64,000 bases of DNA from an uncultured Gemmatimonadales bacterium (GCA_963783385.1 CAWANJ010000001.1:480001-544000), one strand, 5' to 3'. Shown: positions 43,449-62,689, numbered from the stretch's first letter. Notes: generated by a model not told the origin, from the letters alone. Numbers and translations are program-made.

Positions 43449-43483
43449 GAGGGGGGCCGGTCACCGGCCCCCCTCTTTCTTTT
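43449..43483 (+). terminator. Rho-independent terminator
   Basis: GAGGGGGGCCGG-TCA-CCGGCCCCCCTC then TTTCTTTT. Confidence 0.8.
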
Positions 43484-44696
43484 CGGGGTCCCGCCACCAC
43501 GCCGCCCGCTCACGCACGTCCGAAGGGATCTCGACCCGGAAGGCTGCCAGGATCGGCGGTGTCGCCCCACCGGGCGCCAGGAGAGCGTACAGGTTTCCCC
43601 CGGCGAGGTCGTAGGCGACGATCCTGCCGGGTACGTCCACGGTGGCCAGATACAGCCCGGCGCGCGTCAGAAGGTCGAGGCGCGCCGTCCCGCTACCGCC
43701 CAGGAAGGCCGGCGTCTGCCGCAACAGCGCGTATAGCCCCGAGGCCGAGTCGAACCGTACCCCCCGGTAGACGTGCTCGACCCGCTGGAGGCGCACCTCG
43801 CGCTCCACCATCGCGTCGAGGACGCTGCCCTCGAGCTTCGAGTCCATCTCCGCCGCCCTGGCGCGATACAGTCGGCGCAGGGTATCGAGCTCCGCCGCCG
43901 AGGCCGTGTCGGCCGCACGTTGGATGCCGAACTCCGAGAGCATGGCGCCCGTATCCCCTACGGCCATGACGACGGGACGCGTGCACGCCAGCACCAGCAG
44001 ACGTCCGCCGCCTCCGTCCATCTTCCAGCAGTCGAAGTCCATGACCTCCGGGGCGATACGAGAGTGGACGTCTCCCGGGAGGAAGGGATGGCCGATCGTG
44101 TCCGTCACCACGTAACGTCTCCACGCCACCCCGCCGCCCCCGGCTTCGAGCGAGAGGACGGTCGTGTCGTCGAGCGGAAACAGGCTGCGGCCGTCGGCGT
44201 CGAGGCGGATGCGGTGGACTTCGTGTCCGTCGGAAGGGTAGACGGCCAGCTCCTGGTGCGATCCGACCACCACCCGACCCGGGAGGGCCAGCAGGGTCAC
44301 GAGCGAGTCCCTGCCGCCGGGCGCCGAGGTCGGCCAGCCGCCTCGGGTGGCCCCGTCGCCAGCGTCGAACACGTCGACCCGGCCGCCGCGACGATCGAGG
44401 AGGTAGAGCCGGGATTCGTCCACGGCCAGGGAGGGGTCCGGGTTCCAGACCGGCCCCTCGAGGAGCGAATCCGGGAGGGAGTCCCTCCACACCGGGGCGA
44501 GCCGGATGGCTCCCGAATCGAGAACCGGCGTCGCCGGGCTGCGAACCACCGTGACGCCCCCCACGGTGTCGACCGTGCCCTCCCAGCGGGGTCCCCCGAG
44601 CTGGGAGATCATCCGACACCCCGACGCCACCACCCCGGCCAGCAGGACGAGGATCACGCCCCGGCCCGGAGCTCCCGGCCCTCCGCCCCCGATCAC
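43461..44696 (-). CDS. Lipoprotein, probable 6-bladed beta-propeller
   Basis: Lipobox VASG-C; DTVGGVTVVRS; LAVD...LYLLD...VDVFD blade pattern; LDLLTRAGLYLATV. Confidence 0.6.
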   Translation of the reverse strand: MIGGGGPGAPGRGVILVLLAGVVASGCRMISQLGGPRWEGTVDTVGGVTVVRSPATPVLDSGAIRLAPVWRDSLPDSLLEGPVWNPDPSLAVDESRLYLLDRRGGRVDVFDAGDGATRGGWPTSAPGGRDSLVTLLALPGRVVVGSHQELAVYPSDGHEVHRIRLDADGRSLFPLDDTTVLSLEAGGGGVAWRRYVVTDTIGHPFLPGDVHSRIAPEVMDFDCWKMDGGGGRLLVLACTRPVVMAVGDTGAMLSEFGIQRAADTASAAELDTLRRLYRARAAEMDSKLEGSVLDAMVEREVRLQRVEHVYRGVRFDSASGLYALLRQTPAFLGGSGTARLDLLTRAGLYLATVDVPGRIVAYDLAGGNLYALLAPGGATPPILAAFRVEIPSDVRERAAWWRDPEKKEGGR

Positions 44697-44697
44697 C

Positions 44698-45513
44698 TCA
44701 GTGGTGCCTGCCGTCCCGGGTCCACACGATGATCGTGGCGCACTGACCGGTGAAGCCACGGTAGACGAACTGCGGTGGCGTCTCCGAGCCGCTGCGGTAA
44801 ATCTCCATGGCGAGGATGGCCTCGGGGGACAGGTCGTCGATCGCGAGGTTCGGCATCGGCTGGTTGTTCACCCAGATGAAGGGCGTGCACCAGCGCTGGC
44901 CCCGAGGCACCCTGATGGAGGTGTGACCGACGGTCGACTCTCCGACCGAGATCCCCGGGAGTCCCCGGAGCAGATCCGCCGATTTGTTGGCGCGCTCTCG
45001 CTTCCTGTCGACCTCTGCCGGCGTCAGGAACACGCCCTGCCGGGAGCGGCGCCGGTTCTCGAACCCCGCCAGCCGGTCGATCGGGAGCATGTGACGCACC
45101 GTGACGTGGATGTCCTCGAGCTGGAGGACCGTCTCGCTGAGCATGAGCGTCGCCGTCGTGACCCGGTTCCCCTGCAGCGAGATGGGCACCGATTGGTTGG
45201 CGAAGCCGATGAGCCGGACGTGCAGCGTGTCGGGGCCCGCCGGCACTCCGGACAGGACGAAGTGGCCCGTGCTGTCCGTGTACGTGCCGACGCCCGCCTG
45301 CAGGAGCGAGACCTGCGCGTTGTGCAGGGGCCCGCCCGTCATGGCCGACACCACCTGCCCGCGAAGCACCGCCGTCGTGTCCTTCTCCGCAGCGGCCCCC
45401 TGGGCGACCATGTCCCTGGCGCCCAGGAAGATCGCGGCAGCCGCCAGGGCCGCGCACAGGAGGTAGCGCCCGGGTCCGGGCCCGGCCCGGACGATCGTCG
45501 TTGAGGTGCCCAT
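44698..45513 (-). CDS. Carboxypeptidase-regulatory-like domain + TonB plug domain protein lacking a beta-barrel
   Basis: Signal peptide; GQV..PL.NAQV..TDSTGHF..G; LEDIHVT; ADLLRGLPG...DDLSPEAILAMEIY...IIVWTR then stop. Confidence 0.8.
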   Translation of the reverse strand: MGTSTTIVRAGPGPGRYLLCAALAAAAIFLGARDMVAQGAAAEKDTTAVLRGQVVSAMTGGPLHNAQVSLLQAGVGTYTDSTGHFVLSGVPAGPDTLHVRLIGFANQSVPISLQGNRVTTATLMLSETVLQLEDIHVTVRHMLPIDRLAGFENRRRSRQGVFLTPAEVDRKRERANKSADLLRGLPGISVGESTVGHTSIRVPRGQRWCTPFIWVNNQPMPNLAIDDLSPEAILAMEIYRSGSETPPQFVYRGFTGQCATIIVWTRDGRHH

Positions 45514-45729
45514 GCGTACGCTCATCTCGACTGCCAGGCTCCGGAGGGTCGCGCGGTCCGCGAGGGGGCTCACATCGCCTGCAGCTAATATGGTCCTCGG
45601 CTCCTCCGGGTTCCCTGATGCACGAAGCGGGGATGCCGCCACAAAGGCGACACCCCCGCTCCGGTCCGGGCCGCCCTCCGGCCCCGAGGGGTCGGAGGGC
45701 TCACGCCGGCGCTCAGTCCGCCCGAAGCC

Positions 45730-47160
45730 CTAGGGCTGCGAGACGTCGCACATGCTGAGCTGGTAATTCGTGTTGTTCTGCTCGTTGAACGCGATCTGGA
45801 AAGCCACGTCCGTCCCGAACGTGCCGCCCTTGTAGTAGGGCCCGGACGGGAACACGTCGGCCTCGTTGCGCCCGTACTGCCGGATGAGCCGGCGCAGGTC
45901 GCCGAGCCGGTGGCCCGTGGCGTACAGCCAGAAGGCGCGCTCCCTGAACATCGTGTCCACGCGAGCAGCCGGAGTCCCTGGATCGGTGATCGCAGGCAGG
46001 CTCGTGGCCGTGACCTGGTTCGAGAACCCGAAGTCGTTGGGCTCGGGCGGATCGTAGCGCGCCGCGAGCAGGTTCTGAACGTCAGCGCGCAGGGCATTCA
46101 GCTTGCTCAGCCACGTGCCGGGGTCGCCGTTGTTGAGTGCCGCCTCGGCCTCGATCAGACGGGCCTCGATGCCATCGGCCAGGACCACGTTGGAGCCCTG
46201 GAGAGGATAGCGGAGGCCCACGTACTGCGGAATCGTCTGGTCGAAACCGCCGCTCGGATCCTGCGCCCACGGCACCCGCGGGTCGTTGGCCGACCGGAAG
46301 TTCAGGCCATTGCCGCCCGTACCGTCCGGGTCCGCCACGGCCGTACCCGCCTGACCGTTGGCCACCGAGTAGCGGCCGTTGCTCATCAGGTTGAAGATCG
46401 GGTTTTGGTCCGCGCTCACGGCGGCGTTGTGGTAGATGAGGAAGATGAAGTCGGTCGGCACGGACGACACCGCGGCCGCCGCCCCCGCGTAATCCCCGTT
46501 GTCCAGCAGCGCCCGCGCCTTACCGACCATGGCCAGGTATTTCCGCTGGTTGTCCTTGGCCGCCGAGATGGCGGCGTCGAACGTGTCCGCGGCGGCCGAG
46601 AACATCTGGGCCGTCGTCAGCGGAGTGCCCAGGTCGGTGGGCGCGAAGTTCTCCGTGCTGCTGAAGGGAATGTTGGAGCAGAAATTCTCGCCCATGGCCG
46701 TGTAGTCGTAGCCAATGTAGCTCTTCAGCTCGCTGATCCGCGGATCAGCGGCCGACGCGTCGGCCATCAGCTTCTGCGCCGACACGGCCGAAGCGCGGGC
46801 AATGTGCAGGTTCCCGTACGCCGCGTCCGTCGTGTTGCCGTTCTGCGGCGTGAACTGGTCCCTCTGGTCGGTGTGCGTCCGGGTGCTGAACGTCCCGGAC
46901 GAATACATCTCGTCCGTGAAGTCGGCCACCGTCGAGAGGATCTCGTCATCCAGCCCGTGGCCGCTGTAGGCCTGCTGGAAGTCCGACAGCGCTCCCGCGA
47001 ACGCCACATCGGGCGTCAGGTTCGCCGGGGTGGCGCGCTCGGGATCGACCACCTGGAGCGCGTTCCCCTTGCAGGCTCCCGCGACGAGCGGGAGCCCGAG
47101 AGCCAGGAGCCAAACCATCGGCAACCCGGCCCGGCCGTTATTTCGTGAAAGATATCTCAT
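45730..47160 (-). CDS. susD: SusD/RagB family outer-membrane lipoprotein (pair 1)
   Basis: Lipobox VAGA-C; EARLIEAEA, LNALRA, ERAFWLYATGHRLGDLRRL; directly downstream of susC. Confidence 0.88.
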   Translation of the reverse strand: MRYLSRNNGRAGLPMVWLLALGLPLVAGACKGNALQVVDPERATPANLTPDVAFAGALSDFQQAYSGHGLDDEILSTVADFTDEMYSSGTFSTRTHTDQRDQFTPQNGNTTDAAYGNLHIARASAVSAQKLMADASAADPRISELKSYIGYDYTAMGENFCSNIPFSSTENFAPTDLGTPLTTAQMFSAAADTFDAAISAAKDNQRKYLAMVGKARALLDNGDYAGAAAAVSSVPTDFIFLIYHNAAVSADQNPIFNLMSNGRYSVANGQAGTAVADPDGTGGNGLNFRSANDPRVPWAQDPSGGFDQTIPQYVGLRYPLQGSNVVLADGIEARLIEAEAALNNGDPGTWLSKLNALRADVQNLLAARYDPPEPNDFGFSNQVTATSLPAITDPGTPAARVDTMFRERAFWLYATGHRLGDLRRLIRQYGRNEADVFPSGPYYKGGTFGTDVAFQIAFNEQNNTNYQLSMCDVSQP

Positions 47161-47180
47161 GGCTCTATCGTCCTCCTGCC

Positions 47181-50100
47181 TCAGAAGCTCACGTCGACGC
47201 GCGCCGTGAAGATCCGCGGAGCGGGCTGCGTGTTGAACTCACCCTGGTTGAACTGGGTGTTGCCGCCCTGCTCGATGATCTCCGGGTCGATCCCGTTGTA
47301 GCCCGTGAACGTATGGAGATTCCGGGCCGCCAGCGTCAGGCTCAGGCCCCTCGTGAAGGGCATGGCGCTGGTCAGCGACTGCGGAGCGTTCATGCGGATC
47401 GACAGCTCCCGCCACTTCATGAACGCGGCCTTGCCCACGTAGCCGGCGTTCGTCCCGAGGAATCCGTAGGCCGCGAAGCGCGCCTGGTTGGCCAGCGGCG
47501 CGTTCGGGTTGTCGGTCTCGGGGCACCCGCGGCGGTTGCTCAGGAAGCTGTTCACGCAGTCGAACTCGGTGGTCAGGTCGAACTGGCCGTTGCCACCACG
47601 GGCCTCGAACAGCGTGTTGACGTGAATGAAGTCGAACAGGCGGAGGTCCGCCGAGATCGAGCCCTCCCACGTGGGCAGGCTCTCGTTGATGAACGTCGAC
47701 GAGTCGCCGAGCGTGATCTCGCTCGGGACGATGATGCCGTCGCCGTTGGCATCGCTGTAGGTGTAGGGAATCTGCTTGTACGAACCGAGCGCCAGGCCCT
47801 CCTGCACGCTCTGACCGGAGCGTCCGACCACGAAGGACGGCACGCCACCGAGGCTCAGCACCTCGTTGTGGTTCGTGCTCATGCTGACGCCGAGGTCCAG
47901 ACCGACCGCGCTCTGGTCCAGTGCCGTGGCGTTGAGGCTGGCCTCGAAGCCATAGTTCTGGACCTTACCAATGTTGTCGAACACCGTGCCGGTCAGACCG
48001 TAGGACGGCGGCAGCGGCTTGGCCACCAGGGCGTCCTTCGACGTCTTGTGGTAATAGGTGAGCTGCAGGCCCAGGCGCTCGTTGAGGAAGCCGGCGTCGA
48101 AGCCGCCCTCGTACTCGGTGATGCGCTCGGGCTTGAGGGCCGGGTTACCGGTCGAGTTGATCGTGACGCCCGTCGTCTGGGAGCCGTTAACGATCGCGAC
48201 GACCGAGCTGAACAGCGTCTGAGCCTGGCGGAACCCGGGTCGCAGACCCGACACGCCCCATCCCGCCCGCACCCGGAAGCTGCTCAGGACGCTGGACTTC
48301 GGGAACCAGGGCTCGTCGGACATCACGTAGGAGAAGTTGGCGCTCGGATAGTACTGCGCGCCGATGTTGCCGCCAAACGCGCTGTTGTTGTCCACCCGGA
48401 GGCCGAAGGTCAGGTACATCCGGTCACGCCAGGACAGCTGCTCCTGACCGAAGCCGGCCACGGTGCGCAGCCGCGAGAAGTTCTCGTTGACGAAGAACCC
48501 CTGGCTCGTCGCGTCGCAGGACGCCAGTCCGGGCACGATCCCGTACCCGTAGCACTCCGTGACGCCCGTGCGGCTCTCCTCGTAGTGGGCACCGAGCAGC
48601 GTGGCCGAGGTGAAGTCGTTGCTGAGATCGAAGGTCGCCTGCACGGACCCGTTGGCCGTGTAGTTGTAATTGTTCGTGCGCGCGTTATCGCGGAAGCCCA
48701 GCGCATAGCTGGTCGCGATCGGCAGCAGGTTGGGCTGCAGCGTCGAGCTGCCGTTGATGTCGTTGAGGTCCAGACCGCCGTTGGCGTGCACGAGCAGCCA
48801 CGACATCGGGTTCCAGTCCATGTTGCCGCCGATGGTGAGGCGGTCGACGTTGTGGACCTGGAGCAGGCTTCTGAGCTCGTCCGGCGAGAAGAAGAAGCCG
48901 TAGTTGAGATACGAGCCCATGTTCCCGCCATAGGCACCGGTGCCGGGCAGGTACGCGGCCGCGCCGTAGATCCCGTTGAGGATCGGGCTGAAGATGTCGT
49001 TGTCGTTCTGCGGGAGGATCAGCCGGTTGGCCAGGTACATCACGTTCATGCCGACGTTGAACTTGTCGTTGGCCTGGACGTTGAAGGTGGCCGTGGCCGA
49101 CGTACGCGTGTTCACGTTGTAGCTGATGACGTTGCGCTCGAACTGCCGGTCGCCCGACAGGAAGTACGTCACCTCGTTACCGCCCCCCGTGAGGCTCCCG
49201 CCCAGCCGGTCCTGGTGGCCCAGCGTGAAGGGCGTGGTGCGCGGATCGAGCAGCGGGTTGAAGGTCAGCATCACGTCCTGCGTGCACGCACCCTGTGCGG
49301 CGTAGACGTTGGGGCACGAGGTGAACGCGGAAGCGTTGATGCCGCCGTTGGCGCCCGGGGCGATCACCGGGCCCGGACCGATCCGCATCAGCGAGGACAC
49401 GTTCGGCGGGTAGGAGGTCATGTCGTTCATGTTGCCGAGCTCGCCCCAGAAGTGGAAGCGCGTCTCGGCGTTGGTGCCGTGCTTCGTCGTGATCAGGATC
49501 ACGCCGTTGGCGGCGTTGGACCCGTACAGGGCCGCGGCCGCCGGGCCCTTGATGACCTGGACGTTCGAGATGTTCTCGGGGTTCAGGTCGTTGAGCGCCG
49601 AGGGCTCCTGTCCGCCGGTGCCGCCGGCTACCACCGGCTGGGCGCCCGCGGCCACCCGCACGCCGTCGATGTAGACGAGCGGCTCGTTGGAGAGCGAGAA
49701 TGCTGTTGGCGCCACGGATCCGGATATGCTGCGCCGTGCCCGTCGTGCCGGAGACGTTCTGAACGACGACGCCCGAAGCCCGGCCGCTGAGCAGGTCGTT
49801 GAAGCTGCTGACATTCGTCTGGTTGACCTGCGAGGCGTTGATGTTGGCCGCGTTCGTGCCGATGTCGCGCCGCTGCTGGCGCACCCCGGTGACCACGTTC
49901 ACGACCACTTCTTTGAGCCCCACCGCCGACGGCTCGAGCTGAAGATCGACCGTGGTGGTCTGCCCGGCGCGGACCGTTACGTTTCGGCTGATCACCTTGT
50001 AGCCGAGGAGTCGGACACGCAGCTCGTGCGTGCCAGCCGGGACATCGGGAATTCGGTACTTACCGTCCTCTCCAGCCAGCGTCCCCAGGTTCAGGCCCGG

Positions 50101-50274
50101 AATAAAGACCTGTGCACCGGAGACCGGCTTGAGCGTGGACGCGTCGGTGACCGTTCCCGAGATCGTGCCCTGCTGCTGTGCCCGGCCGGCCGTGGACCAG
50201 CCGAGCGACAGGGCCAACCCCGCCGCGAGAACGGCAGCGACGCGCCCTGCGCGTCTGAACAACGTAGCGAACAT
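47181..50274 (-). CDS. susC: SusC/RagA TonB-dependent transporter (pair 1; +1 frameshift at ~49700)
   Basis: N-terminal Cna-B-like domain, LKEVVV, IRIRG, DLNPENI..IKGPAAAALYGSNAANGVILITTK, NPALKPE, C-terminal F. Confidence 0.92.
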
Positions 50275-50542
50275 GGATCACCCTCCTGTGGCTTCGGGAG
50301 TGCTTCTCCGGCGCCCGCCGCAGGCGCTGATGCGCGCGACGAGCCGCCACCCACCCCTGTCTCTCGAGCGAGCCGAACCAACGTAGGTCGGCGCACCGCA
50401 TGGAGCTAGGGGACAGGCCCGGTTCGTGTTAGGCGTTGTGGGGGATCGACGACGTCTGGTGCGTCAGACCGCTCCTCCTGGTCGAAGGGGTGGTGGACGG
50501 CGCCCCGAACGAAGACCTGGGGCTCGCGGGAGTCCAGCATTG

Positions 50543-50571
50543 TGATTAACCGCCGGCCATACCCATGTCAA
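50543..50571 (-). promoter_or_regulatory. Putative promoter of susC1 (~270-nt leader)
   Basis: TTGACA-17 bp-TAATCA (imperfect -10). Confidence 0.4.
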
Positions 50572-50867
50572 GCGCTTTGCGGACACCGCGTCACCGAATC
50601 GTTACAGGTCGCCGGCGTGAATCGGGGCGCCAGGCGTCTGCCGGCAAAGGATATCGCGGGGCCTCTGCAAACCGGATGCGGATATCGGGCGACCAGGCCG
50701 CGCCCCGGCTCGTCTCACGGGATACAGGGTTCGTCGAACCATGGCGCCGTCCGTCGCACGTGGAGCGCACCCGCGCTTCGAACCTCCCTAGCGTGGCGAC
50801 GGCCGCGTTGCCGGGCTCCGACCCGGTGGCTACCTTTTCCTGCGGTCGCACAGACACTCGAGGTTCG

Positions 50868-51746
50868 ATGAAGCCGTATCGGAACCGGACCGGGTCGGAC
50901 CCGCGCCCCTCTCGAGCGCTCCCGAGCCCGGTGGCGTTCGCCCCCGCCGACGGCCCCGCGCCGCCCCGTCGAAGTGTGCTCCCGTCGCCGGTCCCCGGTC
51001 GTCGCGCGGCCCGCCGACGGGCGCTCTTCGGCTTCCTGCTCCTTGCATCCACCCTGCCGACACCGGTCGTGGCCCAGGCGGGCTCGGCCACCCTGCGCGG
51101 CTGGGTCCTCAGAACGGGCACCGACACGCCGCTCCCCGCAGCCCGGGTCGAGCTCGTCGGGATGAAGAAGGCGGCAGTCACCGACTCGGCGGGACGCTTC
51201 GAGGTGGCCGGGCTGCCGTCCGGCGTGGTGGTGGTGCAGGTACGGTACCTCGGGCTGAGCGCCCAGCGCTGGAAGGTGCCGCTGCACACCGACGCCGCCA
51301 CCGCGATCGTGTTCCGCGTCGGGCTCGGCATCATTCCCGTCCCGGCCATCCACGTCTCCGTGAAGCGCGTCGTGTGGCCCAAGATGCGGGGCTTCGAGAG
51401 CCGCATGCAGCGCAGCGAGGGGACCTTCATCACCCGGGACGAGATCCAGCGCCGCCAGCCCCAGGAGCTGAGCGACCTCCTCCGCACCGTACCCGGCCTC
51501 ACCTTCGCACGTCCGTCCATCGAGTTCGAGGATACTCGCGTGGTGATGGGTCACGGACGCCTGCAGTGCACGCCGACCCTGTACATGGACGGACACCGGG
51601 TCTCCGCCTTCCGCCTGGACGACTTCGCTCCCGAGCACATCGAGGCCATCGAAGTCTACACGCGCATGTCGCTCGTCCCGGGCCAGTATCGGATCGGTCC
51701 GAACCGGTGTGGAGCGATCCTGCTGTGGAGCCGCGATACCTTCTAG
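50868..51746 (+). CDS. Carboxypeptidase-regulatory-like domain + TonB plug domain protein lacking a beta-barrel
   Basis: GAGG then ATG 50868; signal peptide; TDSAGRF..GL; SDLLRTVPG...DDFAPEHIEAIEVY...CGAILLWSR then stop. Confidence 0.8.
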   Translation: MKPYRNRTGSDPRPSRALPSPVAFAPADGPAPPRRSVLPSPVPGRRAARRRALFGFLLLASTLPTPVVAQAGSATLRGWVLRTGTDTPLPAARVELVGMKKAAVTDSAGRFEVAGLPSGVVVVQVRYLGLSAQRWKVPLHTDAATAIVFRVGLGIIPVPAIHVSVKRVVWPKMRGFESRMQRSEGTFITRDEIQRRQPQELSDLLRTVPGLTFARPSIEFEDTRVVMGHGRLQCTPTLYMDGHRVSAFRLDDFAPEHIEAIEVYTRMSLVPGQYRIGPNRCGAILLWSRDTF

Positions 51747-51817: not shown

Positions 51818-52282
51818 CTACTTGCCGGCCGGTGGCGGCTGTCCGCCGGTCGTCCCGCCACCACCGGAGCTCAGGACGGCGGCCGCGGCCAGCGCCGCCC
51901 CGACCACGAAGCCTCCGGCCAGGATCGTCTTGATCGCGGAGAACTTCCGGATCTCGATCCCGGCGACCGCATCCGCGGGGACCCGCGCCGTGCGACCGCC
52001 GACCTGCTGTTGGTAGCCCGAGCGTGCGGTGGTCTGGAAGACCGACACGACCAGGGAATCGCCTTCCTCCCCGACCATCTCGGCATCGAGCTCGACGACG
52101 TCGTTTGCGCCGATCTCTCCCATGCGGACGTCGATGGGCCGGCCGAAGTGGATCTTGAGAGCGGTACCCTGCTGCACCCGTTCCGGCGCCCCCTGCAAGG
52201 GCACGTAGGTGTAGCAGCCGGACAGGTACATAGCTCCGCTCGAGATCACGAGCGCCCACACAGGCCGGAAATACCTCCGCAT
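51818..52282 (-). CDS. Hypothetical lipoprotein
   Basis: Lipobox LSG-C-YTYVP; C-terminal hydrophobic helix. Confidence 0.7.
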   Translation of the reverse strand: MRRYFRPVWALVISSGAMYLSGCYTYVPLQGAPERVQQGTALKIHFGRPIDVRMGEIGANDVVELDAEMVGEEGDSLVVSVFQTTARSGYQQQVGGRTARVPADAVAGIEIRKFSAIKTILAGGFVVGAALAAAAVLSSGGGGTTGGQPPPAGK

Positions 52283-52287
52283 CGTGG

Positions 52288-52701
52288 TCAGTCTCCTCCG
52301 ATCGTGAGGCCGTTGCTCGGAAGTCGCCAGTGGACCACCGCACCCGGCACGAGATCGAAGGGCTGGGAGACGAAGCGCAGCCGGTTGCTCCGATCGCCCG
52401 CCGCCAGGCGTCGCTCTCCCGAAATGTCACGCGATTGGTATTCCAGCGTGCCGGTGGTGTGCGGCGACACGGTGCCGAGGAAGGAGCGCTCACCGTCGAA
52501 GGTGAGGAGGTAGACCGTCAGTGGCTCGCTCGGTGTTACGTCGTTCTCCACCACGACGGTGACGCCGGCCCGCGCCGTGGAGTCGGCGGCCGTCCCCCCC
52601 AATGTGGAGACGGGCCCTCCCCTCCCGGAGGCACACGCCAGGAGCGTGACCACCGGGAGGAGGGACCCGATTCTCCTCGAGGCGAACCGGAGAGGCCTCA
52701 G
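52288..52701 (-). CDS. Hypothetical lipoprotein (CTG start inferred)
   Basis: GGAGG then CTG 52701 gives MRPLRFASRRIGSLLPVVTLLA-C; beta-rich VVVEND...LTVYL...FLGTV. Confidence 0.65.
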   Translation of the reverse strand: MRPLRFASRRIGSLLPVVTLLACASGRGGPVSTLGGTAADSTARAGVTVVVENDVTPSEPLTVYLLTFDGERSFLGTVSPHTTGTLEYQSRDISGERRLAAGDRSNRLRFVSQPFDLVPGAVVHWRLPSNGLTIGGD

Positions 52702-52735: not shown

Positions 52736-54145
52736 TCACTGAGTGCAGGAATCCCGCGGGTCGTCGGGTACTGGCGATGAGTTGTTGCCCGTGCCCGCCT
52801 GGTCGATGTTGGTGTTGTTCTGCCTCTCCGCCGACGGATAGAACACCCGGTCGGGGATCTTCTCGCCGTTGTAGGGCGTGATCGCGGGCTGGCAGGTGCG
52901 CAGCCAGTCGCGCCATGTCTCGTGGTTGAGGAAGTCCGCGATATACTTCTGGGTCATGATCTCGTTGAACAACGCCGTGCCCGTGAGGGTGGCGATGTTG
53001 GTCTTGAACGAGCTCAGGTCGATGGGATACCCCAGCGACGCCCAGTAGTCCTCCTGACAGGTGAGCCCGTCCTGGGCCGCCTGCTGCGCCCCCGCCGTGT
53101 TGCTGGCCTCGTACTGGGCCTCGGCGATGATGAACTGGGTCTCGGAGCACGTGAGGATCGGCATCGAGTAGTCGGCCTGCCCCGGCACGTTGAGCTGCGA
53201 GGCATACGAGCTCGGATCGCCCGTCGGCGTGCCCGGAGGTGAACCCTGGTAGCCGCCGCCCACGCTGGCGTCCGCCTCCGTGAAGTAGATCGGCAGGCGA
53301 GGGTCGTTCATGGCGTTCAGCGTGTCGACCAGGAACGCTCCCGACGAGATGTAGCCGGAACGGTCGCTGTTGAACTGGAACCAGATGTTGTTCTCGGTCT
53401 TGGTGCTCGAGTTGATGGCCAGCCAGTTCCCGGCCGGATCCGAGATCCCCTGTTGCGCCTCGGTCAGCGCCTTGCCGTAGGCGGTGGGGTCCGTCGAGGC
53501 CAGGTGCATGTAGATGCGAGCCTTGAGGCTGTGCGCCACGGCCAGCCAGCTCTGGACATCGCCGCCGAAGTTGAAGTCGCTGGCGCCGGGGCCACCCCCA
53601 CCCTGCTGTAGATTGGCGATGGCGTTGTCCAGCGTCGTCTCGAGCTCGGTGTAGACGTCCAGCTGGCCGTCCAGCGGAGCATCGGCCTGCAGCGCCTGGC
53701 TGTAGGGCACGTCACCCCACGTGCTGGCCGCGAGCTCGATGTCCAGGGCCTCGTAGATCTGCAGGATGCCCTCGTAGGCGAAGCGCCCCGAGGAATCGGC
53801 CAACGCCTCGGCCTGCCTGAGGTCGACGAGCCCGCCTCCCTGGTAGATGCGCGCCCATTCGTTGTCGCCGGGCTGGTTCGCCTCGCTGATGTTGTACGCC
53901 GCGTACGTCGCGTACTGGCGGTCGGTGCCATCCATCTGCTGCGTCCAGATGGCGGCCATGCGGCTCAGATCACCTTCGTTGTCGAAGAACGTGCCCACCT
54001 GCGAGCTCACGAACAGCTGGTCAATCGTCGCGTTCGGAACGGCGTTCGGGTTCTGCGTGGTGGGGTTGATGTAGTCGCACCCCGTGAACGCTCCGGCCAA
54101 CACGGCGACGGCCAGCGCGGGCCCGGCCCATCGCTTGATCGTCAT
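52736..54145 (-). CDS. susD: SusD/RagB family outer-membrane lipoprotein (pair 2)
   Basis: AAGGAG then ATG 54145; lipobox FTG-C; NPN, WGDVPYSQA, SLKARIYMH, DPRL, IMTQKYIA, YPSAE. Confidence 0.9.
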   Translation of the reverse strand: MTIKRWAGPALAVAVLAGAFTGCDYINPTTQNPNAVPNATIDQLFVSSQVGTFFDNEGDLSRMAAIWTQQMDGTDRQYATYAAYNISEANQPGDNEWARIYQGGGLVDLRQAEALADSSGRFAYEGILQIYEALDIELAASTWGDVPYSQALQADAPLDGQLDVYTELETTLDNAIANLQQGGGGPGASDFNFGGDVQSWLAVAHSLKARIYMHLASTDPTAYGKALTEAQQGISDPAGNWLAINSSTKTENNIWFQFNSDRSGYISSGAFLVDTLNAMNDPRLPIYFTEADASVGGGYQGSPPGTPTGDPSSYASQLNVPGQADYSMPILTCSETQFIIAEAQYEASNTAGAQQAAQDGLTCQEDYWASLGYPIDLSSFKTNIATLTGTALFNEIMTQKYIADFLNHETWRDWLRTCQPAITPYNGEKIPDRVFYPSAERQNNTNIDQAGTGNNSSPVPDDPRDSCTQ

Positions 54146-54209
54146 CGTCGTTCGCTCCTTCATATCCCTGAGGCGTCGATTCGGAGTCATCGTCTCGGCT
54201 CGCATCCGT

Positions 54210-57200
54210 CTAGCGGACGTAGCTGACGGTGACGATCCAGGAGCGGACCTGCGGGTTCTGGAAGTAGTCCAGCCCGCGGCCCGTGGACTGCCCGGTCAGG
54301 TTCGTCTCCGGGTCGATGCCCGTGTAGTTGGTCCAGGTCTTGAGGTTGCGGCCGCTCAGCGCCAGCTCGATACGGTTCGCACCGAGCTTGCTCACCCAGT
54401 CCTGATTGAAGGTGTAGCGGACGGTGACGTCCCGCAGCTTCACGAAGCTCGCGTTCTCCATGAACTGCGAGGCCGGGCCCGTGAACCCGCTCCCGAGGTT
54501 GTTGAGCGCCCAGTCGGGCGTGAGGTTGACCTGCATCCCGGCTCCCGGGCCGGCACCCTGGAACGTGAAGTTCTGCCCGTCGCCAGGACATGGCGGAGCT
54601 CCACCGCTCTGGCAGTGCCACCCCGCGGTAGCGGCCGGCTTGCCGAAGTAGGTCAGCGCGCCTCTCGTCCCGTTCCACATCATGGCTCCGTGGGAGACGT
54701 CGACGAGTCCGGTAATCGTGAGGTTGTTCATCACGTGGAACGTGTTCCGGAAGCTGGCCGTCCAGCTCGGGTTGGGATCACCGATCGTCCGGAAGCTCGG
54801 GTCGTAGACCGGGTACCCATCGGGGCCGATGTACAGCTGGCCGGGCTTGGCGTTGGGGAAGGCATTGTCGATGTTCACACCGCCGACGGTGATTCCCCGT
54901 CCGAAGCGGACGAAGTCGTCGCCGTAGATCTCGCCGAACGGGCAGGGATCGGTCTGCGTCGGACCGCACTGGTTGGCGAGCACCGCCGCGTACGGATCCG
55001 TGAATCCGGCCAGGAAAATGTTGCTGGCCCCGGGCAACGCCAGGACCTGGCTCCGGTTCCGCGACCACTGGGCGTTGAGCTGCCACGAGAAGTCGCTCGT
55101 CCGGATCGGCGTGAAGTCCGCCGAGATCTCGATGCCCTTGTTTCGGAAGGACGCCGCGTTCTCGTATCGGGCGGAGTAACCCGAGCTCGGAGCCAGGGGG
55201 ACGCTCAGGATGGCGTCGGTGGTCTTCTGGTAGTAGTACGTCCCGCTCAGCGTGAGACGGTTGTCCAGGAACGAGAGGTCCAGTCCGCCCTCGTACTCGC
55301 GGGTGCGCTCGGGAGCGATGTCCGTGTTACCCAGCGTCCCCTGCGAGATGACGCCCGTCTCGCCCCGGTAGATCGTCTGCAGGCCCGAGGAGACCCAGCC
55401 GTCGCCGTAGCTGCTCGTCTGGAACGCGTTCACGTTCGAGTAGATCGGCGGCGCCTTGGCGGCCTCGCCGTAGGCGAAGTGCAGCTTCCCGTAGTTGAGC
55501 CAGCCCACGTTGTCGAAGGCCGGGAGCTTGGTGAACTCCCACGCCAGCTGGGCCGACGGGTAGGTGAAGCGCTTCCCGTTGCCGCCGAAGGTCGAGGAAC
55601 CCTCGTTGTTGACGCTCCCCGTGAGGAAGAGCTGGTTGTAGAGGTCCAGGTGGCCCTCGGCGTAGTACCGGTCCGCGCGTGTCTTGGCCACGTAATCGTT
55701 CGGGACCTGCTTCACGGTCGACTGAAGCTGGTCGGTCCCGTAGATGAGGTTGTTGCCCTCGATGGCGAGGTTGTTCGTCTTGCTCTGGTGGATGTTCTGA
55801 CCGAGCGTCAGGCTCGCCGACACATCCGGCGTGAAGTCGTGCTGCAAGGTACCGGTCAGGATGTTGTCGACATCGAAGGCGTTGTAGTTCGCCTTGATGA
55901 CGCCGCCATCCAGGTAGTTGTCGGAGCTCTTCGGAAACAGCTCCAGATCGCGGGTCTGAGAATAGTCCGCCCCGAAGGTCTCCGAGAAGGTCAGCCATGG
56001 GAACGGATTGTAGTCCGCCCGGATGTTCCCGAACGTGTGCCCCACGTTGGACGTGTTCCGGATCACCTTGGCGATCCAGAACGGGTTGTCGTACCCACGC
56101 GGCTCGGTCAGCGTGGTCGGGTCCGGGTTCCGGTAGGACCGCTGTAGCCCGCCCGCCGTCAGGTAGTTGGCGTTGTTGAACTCGGGCGGGGTCCTGAGCG
56201 CGGCCAGCAGGAGGCCGCTGATGTTCGAGCCCTGCTGCACGAGCGACAGGTCCTGGTTCGTATAGGCGAAGTTGCCGCTCAGGGTCAGGTTGTTGATCAC
56301 GTTGTGCGACGCCTTCAGCCTCACCGTGGCCTTCTTGGCGCTGTGCGGGCCGATGATGTAGGACTGATCGTCGTTGAAGCCCGCCGACATGAAGTAGGTC
56401 GTGGCCTCGCCGCCGCCCGACAGGGTGATGTCGTTGTCGAACCGGTTGGCGGTCTGGAAGAGCTCGTGCGCGTGGTCGAACACGTCCTTGCCCACGACGC
56501 AGTTCGGCGCGCAGGCCAGCTTGGGACCCCAGCTCGTGCTGCCGAGCTGCCCGAAGGACGTCTGCAGCGGCGGCATCTTGTTGACCTGGTCCCACGTATA
56601 CGTGCTCTTCACCGTGAGGCGCGTCGCGCCAGACTGCCCGGACTTCGTCGGTGATGAGCACGACCCCGTTGGCGCCATCGGAACCATACAGCGACGTGGC
56701 CGCGGGACCCTTGAGGATCTGCACGCTGGCGACGTCATTGGGGTTGATGTCGGAGGCGCGGTTCTGGGTGACGGTGCCGCCGACACTTCCATTGACGAAG
56801 TCGGGGTTGCTCGAACTGTTGTTGATCGGCGTCCCGTCCACCACGATCAGCGGCTGGTTGCTGCCGTTCAGCGTCCTGAAGCCGCGGATGTGGATGTAGG
56901 TGCCGGCCCCGGGCTCTCCGCCCGAGCTCGTCACCTGCACGTTCGGAGCCTTGCCGGCCAGGGCGTCGATGATGTTGGTCGCCCGGCTGTTGACGATCGC
57001 GGAGGAGTCCACGGTGTTGATGGTGGCCCCCACGCGGGCTCGCGTGGTCTGCGTGCCCTGGCCGGTGGCCACGATCGCTTCGAGCTGGAGCGGGCTGAAC
57101 GCCAGCGCGAAATCGTGCGAGATCGTGCCGGCCTGCAGCGTGATCGTCGCGGAGACCGATCGGTAGCTGAGTAGCGAGGCCGTGACGACGACCGACTGGC

Positions 57201-57456
57201 CCTGCACGCGCAATGCCGGGATGGTCAAGCTGTAGTTACCGTCCTGGTCTGCGATCGTGCCGAGGCCCAGCGATTTGATCTGGATCGTGGCACTTGCGAG
57301 TGGCTTGCCGTTCTGGTCGGCCACCTTGCCGGTGATGACCATCGCCTGCTGCGCGTGCAGCGGCGCGGTCGTCCCGACCGCGATTCCGGCGGCCATGAGG
57401 ACGGCGAGCGCCGCCCCCAGCAGGCTCCGAACGCGGTTGGACAGGTGAGGACACAT
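54210..57456 (-). CDS. susC: SusC/RagA TonB-dependent transporter (pair 2; +1 frameshift at ~56649)
   Basis: LEAIVATG, IHIRG, DINPNDVASVQILKGPAATSLYG, GN.DIAPERT.EYEGG, YTGIDPE. Confidence 0.92.
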
Positions 57457-57721
57457 CGAGCACCCTCCTGTGGCGTGAGACACTGTCGGGTCGGCGGCGA
57501 GGCTCGCTGTCCTGTGAGCGGGCCCCGAACCGCTACCCGTACTGCGAATCTTCTGGCGCTGTCACCGCCCGCCAACGCGGCGGGACGGATCTTCGGGGAG
57601 CCGTTCGCTCCTCGGCCGTCAGTGCCAGTCGGACGGATCTCCTTGCGACGCGGTCAGTTTCGGTCTTCCCCCATTTCCATCTCGTTCGTCGTCGTGTAAC
57701 GGCTCCGTCACACTGGTTTCT

Positions 57722-57751: not shown

Positions 57752-57911
57752 GCGATGACGTCGTTCGTCGCGCCCCGACGTCGAGTCATCGTGTGAGACC
57801 GCGCGATGACCGCCAAATTCGGGCGTACGCCAGAATGTAGGTGAGACTAAGAGTATTGAATTACAACAATGTAAAACCAGAAAAAGCGGTCTTCGAAGGG
57901 GAGCGTAAAGC

Positions 57912-57964
57912 GGAAAAGACCCCGGGAGGAAGACCGGCCCGGGGGGCGCGGGACGCGCCCCCCG
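57912..57964 (-). terminator. Terminator-like hairpin(s) after susD3
   Basis: GGGGGGCGCG-TCC-CGCGCCCCCC, then a second GC stem and TCTTTT. Confidence 0.45.
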
Positions 57965-57979
57965 TGACCGGACCGGTGG

Positions 57980-59408
57980 TCAGCAACCCGAGGTGGTGGT
58001 CAGGTTCGGATTGTTGTCGACCTCCTGCTTGGGAATCGGCAGGCTGGTCCCGTCGCCCTGCGTGCCGGCGGGATAGAGATCCACGCCGTCCCTGGCCCGG
58101 AAGCGCCGCAGGGTGCCCTGGCGCTGTCCGGACAGCCACAGACCGGCGGCGCGGGCGCGCGCCAGCTGCGGCAGGTCGTCGGCCAGCGTCCCGTCGAAGC
58201 TGACGGGAGCGAAGGCGCCCATGGCCGGCAGCGTGGTGCCGCCGACGCCCGCGTGCGGCCCGGCCAGAGCCGGGTTCACCACCAGCATCGGGTTGTTCGC
58301 CTGCGCGGCGTCGGTGAGCAGCGCGTTGACCCGGTTCTGGGCCGCCGCGGTCTGCCCGTTCCGCAACTCGCTCTCGGCGATGATCATCTGAGCTTCCCAG
58401 CCGGAGGCGAGCAGGATCGGGACTCGCTGCGCCGTCGTACAGGTGCTGGAGGACGATCGCGTTGACGCCCACGTCGACGGGCTTGAGTCCCGGTGGGCTC
58501 ACCTGGAGCAGTCCCTGGTTCTCCCACTCCTGGAGGTACGACCACTTCTCGTGGTGCCGGTTGCTCGACAGCGAGTCACCCACCGTCCACCGCAGCGACA
58601 GGTTGCACACGCCGCGCGTGTAGCCGTAGACGTCGTTGCACTGGGCGTTGGTGTTGGACGAATACTCCGACAGGTAGGTGAAGTCCGTCGGGACGTTCTG
58701 GACGAGCGCCGCGGCCGCCGCGTAGTCCGCCGGGCTGCTGGCCAGATACACCTGGGCCCGCGCCTGCCCGACGACGGCCGCCATCTCCACGTCCGACATG
58801 CCGGCCGCCTGCGCCGACGTCTCGGCGTCCTGGAACTTCTGCAGCGCCGCCTGCGCGGCCTCCGCGGGCGTCACCGCGGCCGCCCGGTCCTCGATCACGG
58901 CCTGGCAATAGAACTCCGCCAGGAATTCCCGGTCGTACCCGCCGTACAGGTCCGAGAGGGCGATCCCCTGCTTGAGCTGGTCCTGCACGTCCGAGAAGTC
59001 GGGATCCTGCAGGTCCGCACGGAAGTTGGTCGAGCCCGTGTCGGCCGAGGCCCGCGACACCTGCAGCGGGCTCCACACGTCGTCGGTGACCGTGCCGTTG
59101 TCGTAGGTCACGTTGCGCTCGTCCACGTCGATCCGCGACGGGAACGTCCCCGACAGGATGAATTCGTCCGTGAACAGCCCGGTGTAGAGGGCGTATCCCT
59201 CGAAAGCGTTCTGGAAGTCCCCGACGAGGCCGTTGATCTGGTTGGGAAGCCCGGCGGCTCCCCCGACCTGGCTCGGCGTCACCACGTTCGGGTCCTTGAC
59301 GTCCAGCAGCCCGCCGTGGCACGCCACCGCGGCCGCCGAAGCGACCACCGCCAGCACCACGAGGAGCCGTCCGGGCGACCCGATCCTTCTGCGTATGTTC
59401 GAGAGCAT
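57980..59408 (-). CDS. susD: SusD/RagB family outer-membrane lipoprotein (pair 3; +1 frameshift at ~58420)
   Basis: GGAG then ATG 59408; lipobox AVA-C; LLDVKDP; after shift PILLASGWEAQMIIAE...LWLSGQRQGTLRR...LPIPKQEVDNNPN. Confidence 0.88.
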
Positions 59409-59427
59409 GGCTCGCTCCTCCCTCATC

Positions 59428-62400
59428 TTAGAAGGTCACCGACAGACGACCCGAGAACGACCGCGCCGGAGGCAGCGTCCACAGCTGGGCGCGTGTGAAC
59501 GAGGCGCCGCCGGCCCAGTTCACCTCGGGGTCGGTGCCGGGATAGTTCGTGAAGGTCGCCAGGTTGTTGCCCGACAGCGTGATGGCGGCGCTCGAGAACG
59601 GTAGCCGCCGCACGAGAGACTCGGGCAGGTCGACACGCAGCGAGATCGTGCGAATCTTGGCGTAGTTGGCGCTGTAGATGAACGGCGTCTCCACGCCGGC
59701 TCCCGCCGCGGTGTCCTTGATCTTCGCCTGGTCCGTCAGATTGCCGCTGGCGTCCGTCTGGAAGATCGCAGGACAGGTCCCGAACTGGTCCCCGCCGCCG
59801 AACAGCCCGCAGCTGAAGGACTCGAGGCCATTGTCCAGCTTGTTGCCGCCGGAGAAGTCGAGGAGCCCGTACAGGGTGACGTTGTCGAACAGAGTCAGGG
59901 TGGAAGACACCGAGCCGAACCACTTGGGCGTCGGCGTGCCGAGGAACACGGCCGTGTCCCCGATGGTCACGGTGCCGCTCCCGTCGATCGACACCGGGCG
60001 CGCGAAGTAGGCGCCCGCCGGGAAGCCTTGCTGGTGCCGCTGGTCGCCGAACACGATCGGCTCGGGCAGCTTCGTCACCTTGTTGGTGTTGGTGGAGAAG
60101 TTCACCCGCCACGCCCACTGGACGTTGTCCATCTGCACCGGGATCCCCGTCACGCCGACCTCGATCCCCTTGTTGCTGAGCTCGCCCACGTTGACGAAGC
60201 GGGCCGAGGTGCTCGGGAAGCCGGTCGACGGCGCCTCCTGGCGCTGCACGATGGCGTCCTTGGTCTTCTGGGTGTAGTAGGTCACCTGCAGGTTCAGCCG
60301 GCTGTCCAGCATGCTGGCGTCGAAGCCGACCTCGAGCTCCTGGCCCGTCTCCGGCTTCAGGCTGTCGTTCCCGGGCTGGTTGGCCGTCACGCCGAGCAGA
60401 TCCTGGCCGTTCCGCGACACCGCGATCGGCGACAGGAGCGCCAGCGCGTCCTCGGTGCCCGGCTGCTTGCCGGACTCTCCCCAGGCGCTGCGCAGCTTGA
60501 ACTGCTGAAAGAAGGTGGGGAACCAGCTCTCGTCGCTCAGAATCCACGAGAACTGGAGCTGCGGGTAGGCCTTGAGGCCCAGTTCGGAGCCGAAGGCACT
60601 GTTGTCGTCCAGGCGGAGGGCCGGCGTCAGGAAGACCCGGTCCTTCCAGCTCAGCTGCTCCTGCCCGAACACGCCGGCCGTCTTGACCTCGGCGAAGGTG
60701 TCGGAGCCCTCGTTGGTCACGGCGTTGCTCACCGCGGGCGAGCCGGCCGTGAAGTGGCGGCCGATGGCCTCCGTCTGCTGCGTGGTCTGCCGCACCCACT
60801 GGCCGCCCACCGTCGTGGTGCTCGTGATGTCGGGGGTCAGGTCCGCGACCACGCTCGAGGTGGCGTCCAGCGTGATGTCACGCGTGACGCCGTAGATCTT
60901 GTCGACCAGCCCCAGGGACTGGTCTCCGAACGGCAGTGACGGGTCCACCGGCACGATCTGGTTGGTCCGCGCCGAGTGGGAGTCGTAGCCCACCGTGACC
61001 CGGTTCGTCCAGAAGGACATGGGCCGGTAGGTGAAGTTCACGCTGCCGGTGAAGCGCTCCACGGACTGGTTGTTCTGGCGAGAGAAGAGCTTCTGCATCG
61101 AGTTCGGCACGGCGACGAAGTAGGGACTGTCGCACAGGTTGTTCGTGGCGTCCTGCAGCGAGGACCCCGTGGCCAACGCGTACTCGTACGCCAGGAAGCA
61201 GCTCTGGACCGCCGCGCCGCCACTGGTCGGGTCGGGACGCTTGATCGGCCCCCAGAACGAGGTCCCGAGCGCGTTCCCGACCACGCCGAACAGGTTGTCG
61301 TCGTTCTCGGGCAGCGCGGTCGTGCTGCTCACGTAGCCCGTGTTGACGCTGATGTCCACCTTCTCGGACGGGTGCGCTGACAGGTTGGCGCGCCCGTTGT
61401 AGCGCTCGACCGAGTTCGACGGCAGGTCGCCCTGGTCGTTCCGGTACTCGCCCGACAGGTAATAGCCGAGGTTCGACTCGCCGCCCCGGATCGAGGCCCC
61501 GTAGTTGCCCATGTACCCCGTGCGGAAGGGCGACTTGAAGGGGCCGGCGCCTTCCAGGAGGTTGACGTCGTACACGGTGTCATGAACCGGAGCCACGCCG
61601 GTGAGGATCTGGAGGCCGAGCCCCTTGGCCGGATCCCACGCCATCGACCACCAGTTGGTGGCATCCCAATTGGCCCCCTGCTCGGTCCACAGGCTGTAGC
61701 GGGTCTGTCCCGACTGGCCCTTCTTGGTCGTGATGCGGATCACGCCCCCCGAAGCCTCGGTGCCGTACAGCGCGGCCGCAGCCGGTCCTTTCACGACCTC
61801 GATGCTGGCGATGTCCTCCGGGTTGATGTCGTTGAGGCGGGTATAGTCCTGGCCGCCCACGCCGCCGGCCACGGCGTTGTTGTTGTCGATGCGCGCGCCG
61901 TCCACGTACACGATCGGCGTGTTGCTCAGGCCGAGGGTGGTAGCGCCACGGATCTTGATGTCGGAGGCCGTGCCCAGGGAACCGGAGCTCTGCCGGATCG
62001 TGACGCCCGTGACGCGGCCCTGCAGGAGCTGCGTGAAGTCGGCGCTCGGCTGCTTCTGGGTCTCCTGTGCCACGTCCAGGGTGCTGACGGCGTTCCCCAG
62101 CTCCTTGGTGCGCTGGGTGCCGGTCGCCGTCACGACCACCTCCTCCAGCGACACGGCCGACACGCCGAGCTGGAAGTCGGTGGTGGCCACGCCGCCCTCG
62201 GTCACGGTGATCGTCTTGGACGCCTGCTCGTAGCCGATGAGCCGCACCCTCACCTCGTGCTGCCCGGCGGGCACATCGGTGATCGTGTAGTGCCCATTGG
62301 GATCGGCGAGGGCCCCGAGCTGGGTGCCAACGACGATCACCTGCGCGCCCGAGAGTGGGCTGAGGTTGGTCGCGTCGACGACCCGGCCCTGGACCGTGCC

Positions 62401-62508: not shown

Positions 62509-62689
62509 CACGGCACCTCCCTGGTTGGAGAGGACGCCAGGTGGCGCGTCCCCTTTGTGCCCGGTCCCGCTGGAGCGCGGGACCGTCGGTCTCACGGCGT
62601 GAACCCGAGTACGTGGACGTGTCGAATATTTTGCGTCCGGACCTTAGCGTCGACCCGTCCGGTAGCGACGCGTCGACCCGGCCGGCGCC

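Follow-up and report, generated by a model that had tools for sequence, protein, structure and literature searches.

Barrel-less copies of a SusC-type front end, with a predicted plug fold, form a family in Gemmatimonadota

TonB-dependent transport is thought to need a plug and a barrel in one polypeptide chain, and plugs isolated in the laboratory are reported not to fold. The locus described here raises the question of what the front part of such a transporter may do on its own. The window analysed is a stretch of 64,000 nucleotides from an uncultured Gemmatimonadales bacterium (GCA_963783385.1, CAWANJ010000001.1:480001-544000; G000:C1:480001-544000 in our numbering of a 3.54-Mb genome in 9 contigs), with a G+C content of 70%. 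Two genes in it, gene A (44698-45513, minus strand) and gene B (50868-51746, plus strand), flank a SusC/SusD-like gene pair, and each encodes the periplasmic front end of a SusC-type TonB-dependent transporter without the barrel. We find that this architecture does not continue into a barrel in their homologs, that its last domain is predicted to fold as a plug, and that A and B belong to a Gemmatimonadota family that is under selection and forms a single branch. Our tentative reading, based on modelling, is that A and B are exported, barrel-less copies of this front end that engage TonB and compete with, or tune, its coupling to transporters.

Gene A was read from its open reading frame and Pfam matches as a protein of 271 amino acids, with a start that possibly lies as far out as 45531; gene B, read in the same way, was first taken to encode 292 amino acids. 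Since the first ~45 residues of B are poorly conserved relative to its ortholog, its true start probably lies later. The two proteins align by BLASTP with 30% identity over 223 residues (E 3e-34) and are paralogs, as the original prediction had held; the signal peptide, SusC-like N-terminal domain, TonB-box-like strand and plug that it assigned to each are likewise borne out. For A, a predicted Sec signal peptide, called by eye from the sequence, takes up residues 1-38 (ending LGARDMVAQ/G; 45400-45513). A hydrophobic stretch followed by 'AQ' recurs in the alignment of its homologs; A has no lipobox. Residues ~46-130 of A (45124-45378) are a SusC-type N-terminal extension (NTE) of the CarboxypepD_reg or transthyretin-like kind, identified by Pfam PF13715 and by fold; PF13715 (CarbopepD_reg_2, cut-off 32.2) scores 61.7 bits in A and 37 bits in B. 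The TonB-box-like strand follows at residues 129-142 of A (VLQLEDIHVTVRHM; 45088-45129), where the family alignment conserves the block 'SETVLRVEDIxVEV' with an invariant V139. The aligned strand of B is IIPVPAIHVSVKR (residues 155-167; 51330-51368). The plug-like C-terminal domain spans residues ~149-267 in A (44713-45069) and ~175-290 in B (51390-51737), and holds two cysteines in each protein: Cys209 (44887-44889) and Cys258 (44740-44742) in A, both invariant in the family alignment, and Cys234 (51567-51569) and Cys281 (51708-51710) in B. With the Pfam Plug family PF07715 (cut-off 23.9), B scores 36 bits and lies above the cut-off, while A, at 18.1 bits, lies below it.

Neither PF00593 nor any other barrel family of Pfam was matched in A or B. 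Both proteins stop 3-5 residues past the last plug strand, with the C-terminal ends IIVWTRDGRHH (A) and ILLWSRDTF (B), which agrees with the predicted stop a few residues after that strand, and the gene downstream of A is unrelated by Pfam. The whole-protein SusC model TIGR04056 (cut-off 368) gives only 32.4 bits for A and 14.8 bits for B, the NCBIfam match being confined to the first ~85 of its 981 positions. No match to the SusC signature TIGR04057 was found in A or B, whereas the neighbouring SusC scores 52.3 bits. The position of both genes beside SusC led us to consider FecR-type anti-sigma factors as well; A and B contain no FecR or anti-sigma family of Pfam, and neither such a domain nor a sigma factor was found among the neighbouring window genes scanned with Pfam.

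Are the stops real? Contigs assembled independently from two metagenome runs of other studies, X4 (sediment) and X8 (salt marsh), cover both genes. For A they show 0 differences, stop codon included; for B they show no insertion or deletion, the stop again included, and 1 base change at 51410 in one run. Hence, the stops of A and B are not assembly errors. The same check is instructive for the transporter gene between them, which is the SusC-like gene at 47181-50274 (minus strand; Pfam and TIGR04056), read in two frames in the window. Base 49699 is extra: it is left out in contigs of X1, X4 and X8, and is also missing from a 95.5%-identical relative, whose SusC is intact at 1031 amino acids. 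We therefore conclude that the split of this SusC is an assembly error and not a pseudogene.

With the stops established, the next question is whether A and B are isolated cases. A C-terminal profile, A2, defines the unnamed family of barrel-less NTE-plug proteins in Gemmatimonadota discussed from here on; the first profile was built from 65 short homologs. A and B score 151 and 153 bits against A2 and thus fall within the family. A search of the genome with A returned its 100% self-match and 9 paralogs, and the genome holds 10 members, among them a tandem trio and two long forms of ~700-760 amino acids. In this genome, no member scores below 48.5 bits with the C-terminal profile and no true transporter plug above 31.5 bits, and the profile match in members ends 0-16 residues ahead of the stop.

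The same architecture was found far beyond this genome. A scan of genome contigs for relatives gave 276 matched stretches, 213 of them relatives, from which 79 loci were kept out of the 80 most similar to A; 71 of these are titled as a Gemmatimonadota lineage and 8 as 'uncultured bacterium' only. Among the 107 matches at related loci that reach the C-terminus of the profile, 95 stop at most 35 residues after it. The other 12 are full SusC proteins with 24-75 bits, the lowest family match shown having 136 bits. From a library of 1.8 billion proteins, the best 150 representatives listed were re-scored: the module is present in 63, and in all 63 it ends at most 27 residues from the C-terminus. 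Homologs thus do not normally continue into a barrel, which would have spoken against the original prediction. Of the module-bearing representatives, 28 are multidomain proteins of more than 400 amino acids and 9 carry two modules in tandem; the long forms have extra CarboxypepD_reg domains and an unassigned region ahead of the module. Representative totals from this library (5034 at E≤1e-30) are no measure of family size, as proteins with repeated CarboxypepD_reg dominate them. A word-based search, weak evidence by its nature, found no longer relatives of the C-terminal part, and the matches in the ESM Atlas were all to clusters of the same family, Gemmatimonadota being the commonest recorded phylum. 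Of 301 Gemmatimonadota genomes sampled, 181 have at least one member, and at the level of genera the figure is 84 of 127, the genome count including the unpublished genomes G097 and G182, and the ten genomes in which copies were counted hold 4-18 diverged copies each.

A tree was built from 80 family rows, thinned from 106 by a k-mer redundancy filter that kept all ten members of this genome, and 15 SusC N-terminal modules. A single branch with a support of 100 in the Shimodaira-Hasegawa-like approximate likelihood-ratio test (SH-aLRT) parts the 80 family rows from the 15 SusC rows, with A and B on the family side. All 80 family rows have the two cysteines, and none of the 15 SusC rows has them at these columns. 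Further residues specific to the family are a Pro (100%) and a Trp of the last strand (96%), and a GF..R motif is invariant in it. The claim that the two cysteines set these proteins apart from SusC plugs thus finds its counterpart in the alignment. For A and its orthologs, the ratio of non-synonymous to synonymous substitution rates (dN/dS) comes to 0.163 and 0.169, close to the 0.172 of the neighbouring SusD. The B ortholog in locus L025 is 80% identical, with a dN/dS of 0.31 when the doubtful N-terminus is included. Given the ten members in one genome, the spread through the phylum, the C-terminal position of the module, the single branch and the dN/dS of A, we conclude that A and B are members of a stable, selected family and not broken receptors, as the original prediction had proposed. 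That they are decaying remnants of transporters, or artefacts of assembly, is contradicted by the present results and deserves next to no credence: indel errors do exist in neighbouring genes of this assembly, but the confirmed stops, the purifying selection, the invariant residues, the single branch and the phylum-wide spread all speak against it.

We then asked what fold this architecture would take. The full-length model of A has a predicted local distance difference test (pLDDT) score of 85 and a confident Ig-like domain; its N-terminal domain superposes on the NTE of the SusC BT3090 (9hfj) with Z 11.3 and a root-mean-square deviation (rmsd) of 2.2 over 78 residues at 32% identity in a VIA search. 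Because nearly all fold-search matches of the full-length model were to its Ig-like N-terminal domain, the C-terminal part was folded alone, which gave a pLDDT of 86.2 and a predicted template modelling score (pTM) of 0.78. All 50 Foldseek matches listed for this model are TonB-dependent transporters, the best being Cir (9nn6; E 2.8e-4, template modelling score 0.52). The VIA search covers 48,161 chains and does not depend on Foldseek. Of its 45 rows with Z≥2, the first 33 are TonB-dependent transporters aligned at their plug; FyuA, for example, matches with Z 8.2 and an rmsd of 3.4 over 107 residues. At the level of sequence, the family profile matches the plugs of Cir (E 2e-7) and BtuB (5.5e-6), in an alignment that reaches the strand that ends the plug. 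The C-terminal domain is thus predicted to fold as a plug, as had been anticipated. The earlier description of a 'full plug' was generous: plug homology and fold stand, but A and B have a plug core that covers Pfam positions ~10-97 of 107 and whose loops are short. As both cysteines are invariant and the proteins have signal peptides, the plug is probably locked by a disulfide specific to the family.

Would the strand ahead of this plug be recognized by TonB? A canonical exbD-exbD-tonB locus is present in the genome, its TonB being encoded at G000:C2:241580-242263 with the C-terminal domain at residues ~130-228; seven more matches to this type of domain score above the family cut-off. TonB's C-terminal domain, as encoded at the canonical locus (22-row alignment, unpublished genomes omitted), was modelled together with residues 124-271 of A (75-row alignment). 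Three runs scored 0.68, 0.68 and 0.71, against 0.00 for the best of 3 controls; the mark set for such models is reached by 116 of 157 solved complexes and by 2 of 215 mismatched pairs. The runs share at least 77% of their contacts, and the pLDDT of the partner is at least 77. The modelled interface joins residues 129-142 of A, VLQLEDIHVTVRHM, to residues 87-99 of the TonB piece, which are its last strand, in the canonical pairing. By its position and by this modelled pairing, the strand of A is predicted to be a TonB box; the modelling check that had been suggested with the TonB C-terminal domain came out in favour of the idea, in terms of likeness to solved complexes. Since TonB-transporter complexes have already been solved, the score attests to likeness to them, and not to binding. 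Two statements in the literature give this prediction its context. A passage of a 2026 preprint hypothesises that the N-terminal extension of SusC helps to find and select TonB and guides the pairing (bioRxiv 10.64898/2026.09.16.752182), and a passage of a 2024 review (PMC11658791) has TonB molecules scarcer than transporter molecules.

The best TonB_C score in the genome (69 bits) belongs to a predicted lipoprotein of 138 amino acids (LLAGC) at G000:C1:467251-467667 (L104:1474-1890, minus strand), 13 kb before the window. It consists of little beyond the TonB C-terminal domain and is devoid of a membrane anchor helix or a proline-rich arm.

In the reading that we tentatively favour, as the most economical one, A and B would be exported to the periplasm, as their signal peptides and invariant cysteines suggest, and would be soluble there. 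The miniature plug would fold on its own, probably locked by the disulfide, and the SusC-type docking domain and TonB box would be presented to the Ton motor. A and B would then most likely compete for TonB or tune its coupling to transporters, and selection among the cell's several TonB-like proteins may fall to the N-terminal domain. They may also serve the SusC/D operons that they adjoin, and would not be part of the channel. In wider form, the proposal is that the 'free plugs' of Gemmatimonadota are soluble, disulfide-locked periplasmic regulators or clients of TonB, either competitors that ration a scarce motor or proteins that TonB pulls on; this we regard as possible, with considerable doubt.

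Several observations weigh against the competing or tuning role. A simple decoy leaves the 4-18 diverged copies per genome, the tandem arrays and the long multidomain forms unexplained. A good complex score is to be expected of any TonB-box-like strand, and the disulfide is deduced only from the invariant cysteines and the signal peptides. The family shows no linkage to tonB or exbBD in this genome, the nearest member lying ~46 kb from tonB. Nor are the family loci concentrated around transporter genes. A census took in every family match and every PF00593 barrel match of ten other well-assembled genomes, which represent nine genera. A barrel is found at 5 kb or less from 6 of 95 family loci, where 4.7 are expected (p 0.33), and at 8 kb or less from 8 of 95, where 7.5 are expected (p 0.48). 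In the second set of the census, 5 of 56 matches were dropped because they scored under 50 bits; two of the five share a reading frame with a barrel. At most, therefore, some subclades have a role that is tied to one particular SusC.

This census bears equally on the idea that A and B are a dedicated third subunit of the SusC/D system that they adjoin, which would bind SusC from its periplasmic side, or pass it on to TonB, for that transporter only. The arrangement in the window does suggest it: A follows SusD on the same strand, and B, divergent from one SusC operon, is convergent with the one that comes after it. Loci L025 and L026 repeat the order SusC-SusD-A, and in L027 a SusD-like gene stands directly upstream of the A ortholog, where the contig ends; the convergent arrangement of B recurs in L043-L045. 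In this genome a transporter gene adjoins 3 of 7 family loci, and a clade of seven rows from different assemblies keeps a divergent SusC, 6 of the 7 lying within 3 kb of the SusC gene. A SusC-like gene is present in the 8-kb flanks of 26 of 72 related loci, a count that is biased because these loci are the ones most similar to A, and kin; the census above is less prone to this. Adjacency to SusC within 3 kb is seen in 20 of 80 tree rows and needs 11 changes on the tree. Genomes that have the family are almost all SusC-positive, and only 1 of the 20 SusC-negative genomes listed has a family match, a weak one (G070). SusC-type genes themselves occur in 257 of 301 genomes, a count that includes the unpublished G097, G057, G182 and G157. 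The converse does not hold: in genera g13 and g17, SusC is present in 18 of 18 and 10 of 10 genomes and a family member in 0 of 18 and 0 of 10. On clustering the 737 called neighbour genes of the 79 loci, no universal partner emerged, as the top clusters reach at most 12 loci; these are a 599-amino-acid protein without a Pfam family beside SusC, SusD-like, OsmC, FG-GAP/ASPIC and Nramp proteins. The family is thus no obligatory component of SusC/D, the linkage being local only, and the notion of a general system formed with SusC/D finds no support. A dedicated subunit is on this evidence unlikely for the family; dedication to a neighbouring transporter is possible in some subclades, among them those of A and B.

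Two further explanations were considered. In one, the free plug acts in trans, as the cork of a separately encoded plug-less barrel or as a spare cork for SusC barrels. The module does end exactly where the plug of a transporter ends, the cork and barrel of FhuA, made separately, have reportedly been found to reassemble in vivo, and one member is translationally coupled to an S15 peptidase gene that follows the gene of a CBM9/DUF5916 protein, itself a potential large barrel. The barrels of this genome are, however, already supplied with plugs. Ten of its 11 PF00593 barrels have a PF07715 plug just upstream, and the 11th (C2:64415) has a degenerate one by eye. This last gene lies in a region (C2:61.7-65.5 kb; ECF sigma factor, for extracytoplasmic function, a CarboxypepD_reg frame and a barrel frame) that was taken up as a candidate plug-less barrel and set aside, as its translation shows the degenerate plug and the split is probably a frame error. 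The DUF5916/CBM9 protein was likewise rejected as a plug-less barrel partner, being near the family in only 4 of 79 loci, and no barrel neighbour is conserved. The two modules in one chain of 9 of the 63 representatives, and the long periplasmic-type domains ahead of the module in 28 of them, also do not suit a cork, and a plug with short loops and a probable disulfide argues for life outside a barrel. The earlier suggestion that these proteins are half of a split transporter is therefore not supported, and action in trans as a cork is very unlikely. In the other explanation, the proteins bind or shuttle ligands: the free plug would bind an imported substrate or another periplasmic partner, TonB binding being incidental or lost. 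This would suit the many diverged paralogs and tandem arrays and their varied neighbours, which include peptidases, OsmC, Nramp and FG-GAP proteins, and the isolated plug of FepA still bound its siderophore weakly, according to a passage in the review cited above (PMC11658791). The loops that bind substrate in transporters are short here, and conservation specific to the family is highest in the TonB-box block and in the structural core rather than in the loops; we consider a ligand-binding role quite unlikely.

Several known systems lie close to the family. With SusC/RagA transporters (TIGR04056; BT3090 9hfj, the dextran SusC 8aa4, and BT1763) the family shares the order of Ig-like NTE, TonB box and plug, and its plug matches SusC chains 8aa4 and 5fq8, with the canonical strand pairing in the TonB model. 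It differs from them in that it has neither the 22-strand barrel nor the SusC signature, in its miniature plug with short loops, in its own pair of cysteines, Pro and Trp, and in its separate branch; some members also carry the module twice or behind long extra domains. The plugs, or corks, of FepA and FhuA isolated in the laboratory are likewise plugs without a barrel; unlike them, the present proteins are a natural family, predicted to fold (pLDDT 86) and with a conserved Cys pair, whereas the isolated FepA plug behaved as unfolded, as a passage of the 2024 review states (PMC11658791). A further likeness is to TonB-dependent colicins such as colicin M (TonB box ETLTV), in which, in the account given in a section of the same review (PMC11658791), a TonB box on a protein that is not a transporter meets TonB in the periplasm. 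Colicins are imported toxins with the TonB box in an unstructured N-terminus, while the family consists of exported proteins of the cell itself, with NTE and plug domains.

The same genome encodes a different kind of protein with plug sequence and no barrel. This protein of 546 amino acids, at G000:C2 ~163020-164660 (L105:1201-2841, minus strand), combines a membrane peptidase domain of the BlaR1/M56 type (HExxH) with a TonB C-terminal domain and ends, at its C-terminus, in the last half of a plug. It resembles the family in that plug-derived sequence is used without a barrel, here fused to the TonB C-terminal domain; it differs in that it is a membrane-anchored, peptidase-like sensor with the last half of the plug only, and has no NTE or TonB box.

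A literature search, outside which most subscription journals lay, found no paper on barrel-less plug proteins. The existence of a selected, phylum-wide family of stand-alone NTE, TonB-box and plug proteins means that the front end of these transporters has a life of its own. If the predicted TonB binding is true, the family would bear on how scarce TonB is shared among transporters and on the role of the SusC N-terminal extension, and would offer small soluble tools for the study of TonB-box recognition. If these proteins are regulators or clients of TonB, they would constitute a control layer of outer-membrane transport that has not been described in any organism. For annotation, such genes should not be named truncated receptors, and the 'pseudogene' call for the adjoining SusC should give way to an assembly error.

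The remaining features of the region can be described briefly. Three SusC/SusD-like pairs lie on the minus strand between 43.4 and 62.7 kb (45730-50274, 52736-57483 and 57861-62643). In the first, the SusD-like lid gene (45730-47160, minus strand; weak Pfam matches to SusD_RagB and TPR) stands upstream of A on the same strand. In the second, the SusC (54210-57483) switches frame just past the plug, at ~56.7 kb, and in the third the C-terminal part of the SusD (57861-59426) is out of frame. Split transporter genes are also present at G000:C4:41.5-43.3 kb, C9:202-204 kb and C2:63-65 kb. These other splits are probably further single-base assembly errors. In the one RNA library (X20), contigs were found on the SusD and SusC genes and not on A or B; contigs cannot show absence, and this result has no bearing on expression. 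Divergent from the first SusC, B converges on two small genes of 154 and 121 amino acids (51818-52653, minus strand; no Pfam family) that end the second SusC/SusD operon, and the same small-gene pair is convergent to a family gene in L043, L044 and L045. Directly downstream of A, a gene of 432 amino acids (43461-44759, minus strand) has only a weak BamB/PQQ-like match; its counterpart is kept beside the A ortholog in L025 and L027, and it may share a transcription unit with A.

In the genome as a whole, peptidases (S9, S15 and tricorn-like) are found near 4 of 7 family loci. One apparent operon, at G000:C1:123319-128945 (L020), encodes a CBM9/DUF5916 protein, an S15 X-Pro dipeptidyl peptidase and then a member of the family, with an overlap of 4 bases between the stop of the peptidase gene and the start of the family gene; immediately downstream is a SusD/SusC pair in convergent orientation. 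In the clade nearest A, family genes, often two or three in tandem, have no SusC nearby and are followed by a convergent OsmC-like gene (10 loci) and a Nramp-type metal transporter gene (8 loci); the loci with these neighbours are L028-L032, L036, L038, L041, L046, L052 and G000:C9:884482-888243. Finally, the region G000:C2:61761-67526 (L024:4261-10014) contains genes for an ECF sigma factor, for a protein of 270 amino acids that matches no Pfam family and may be an anti-sigma factor, and for a transporter whose plug is degenerate; the most divergent member of the family lies convergent to them, 1.2 kb away.

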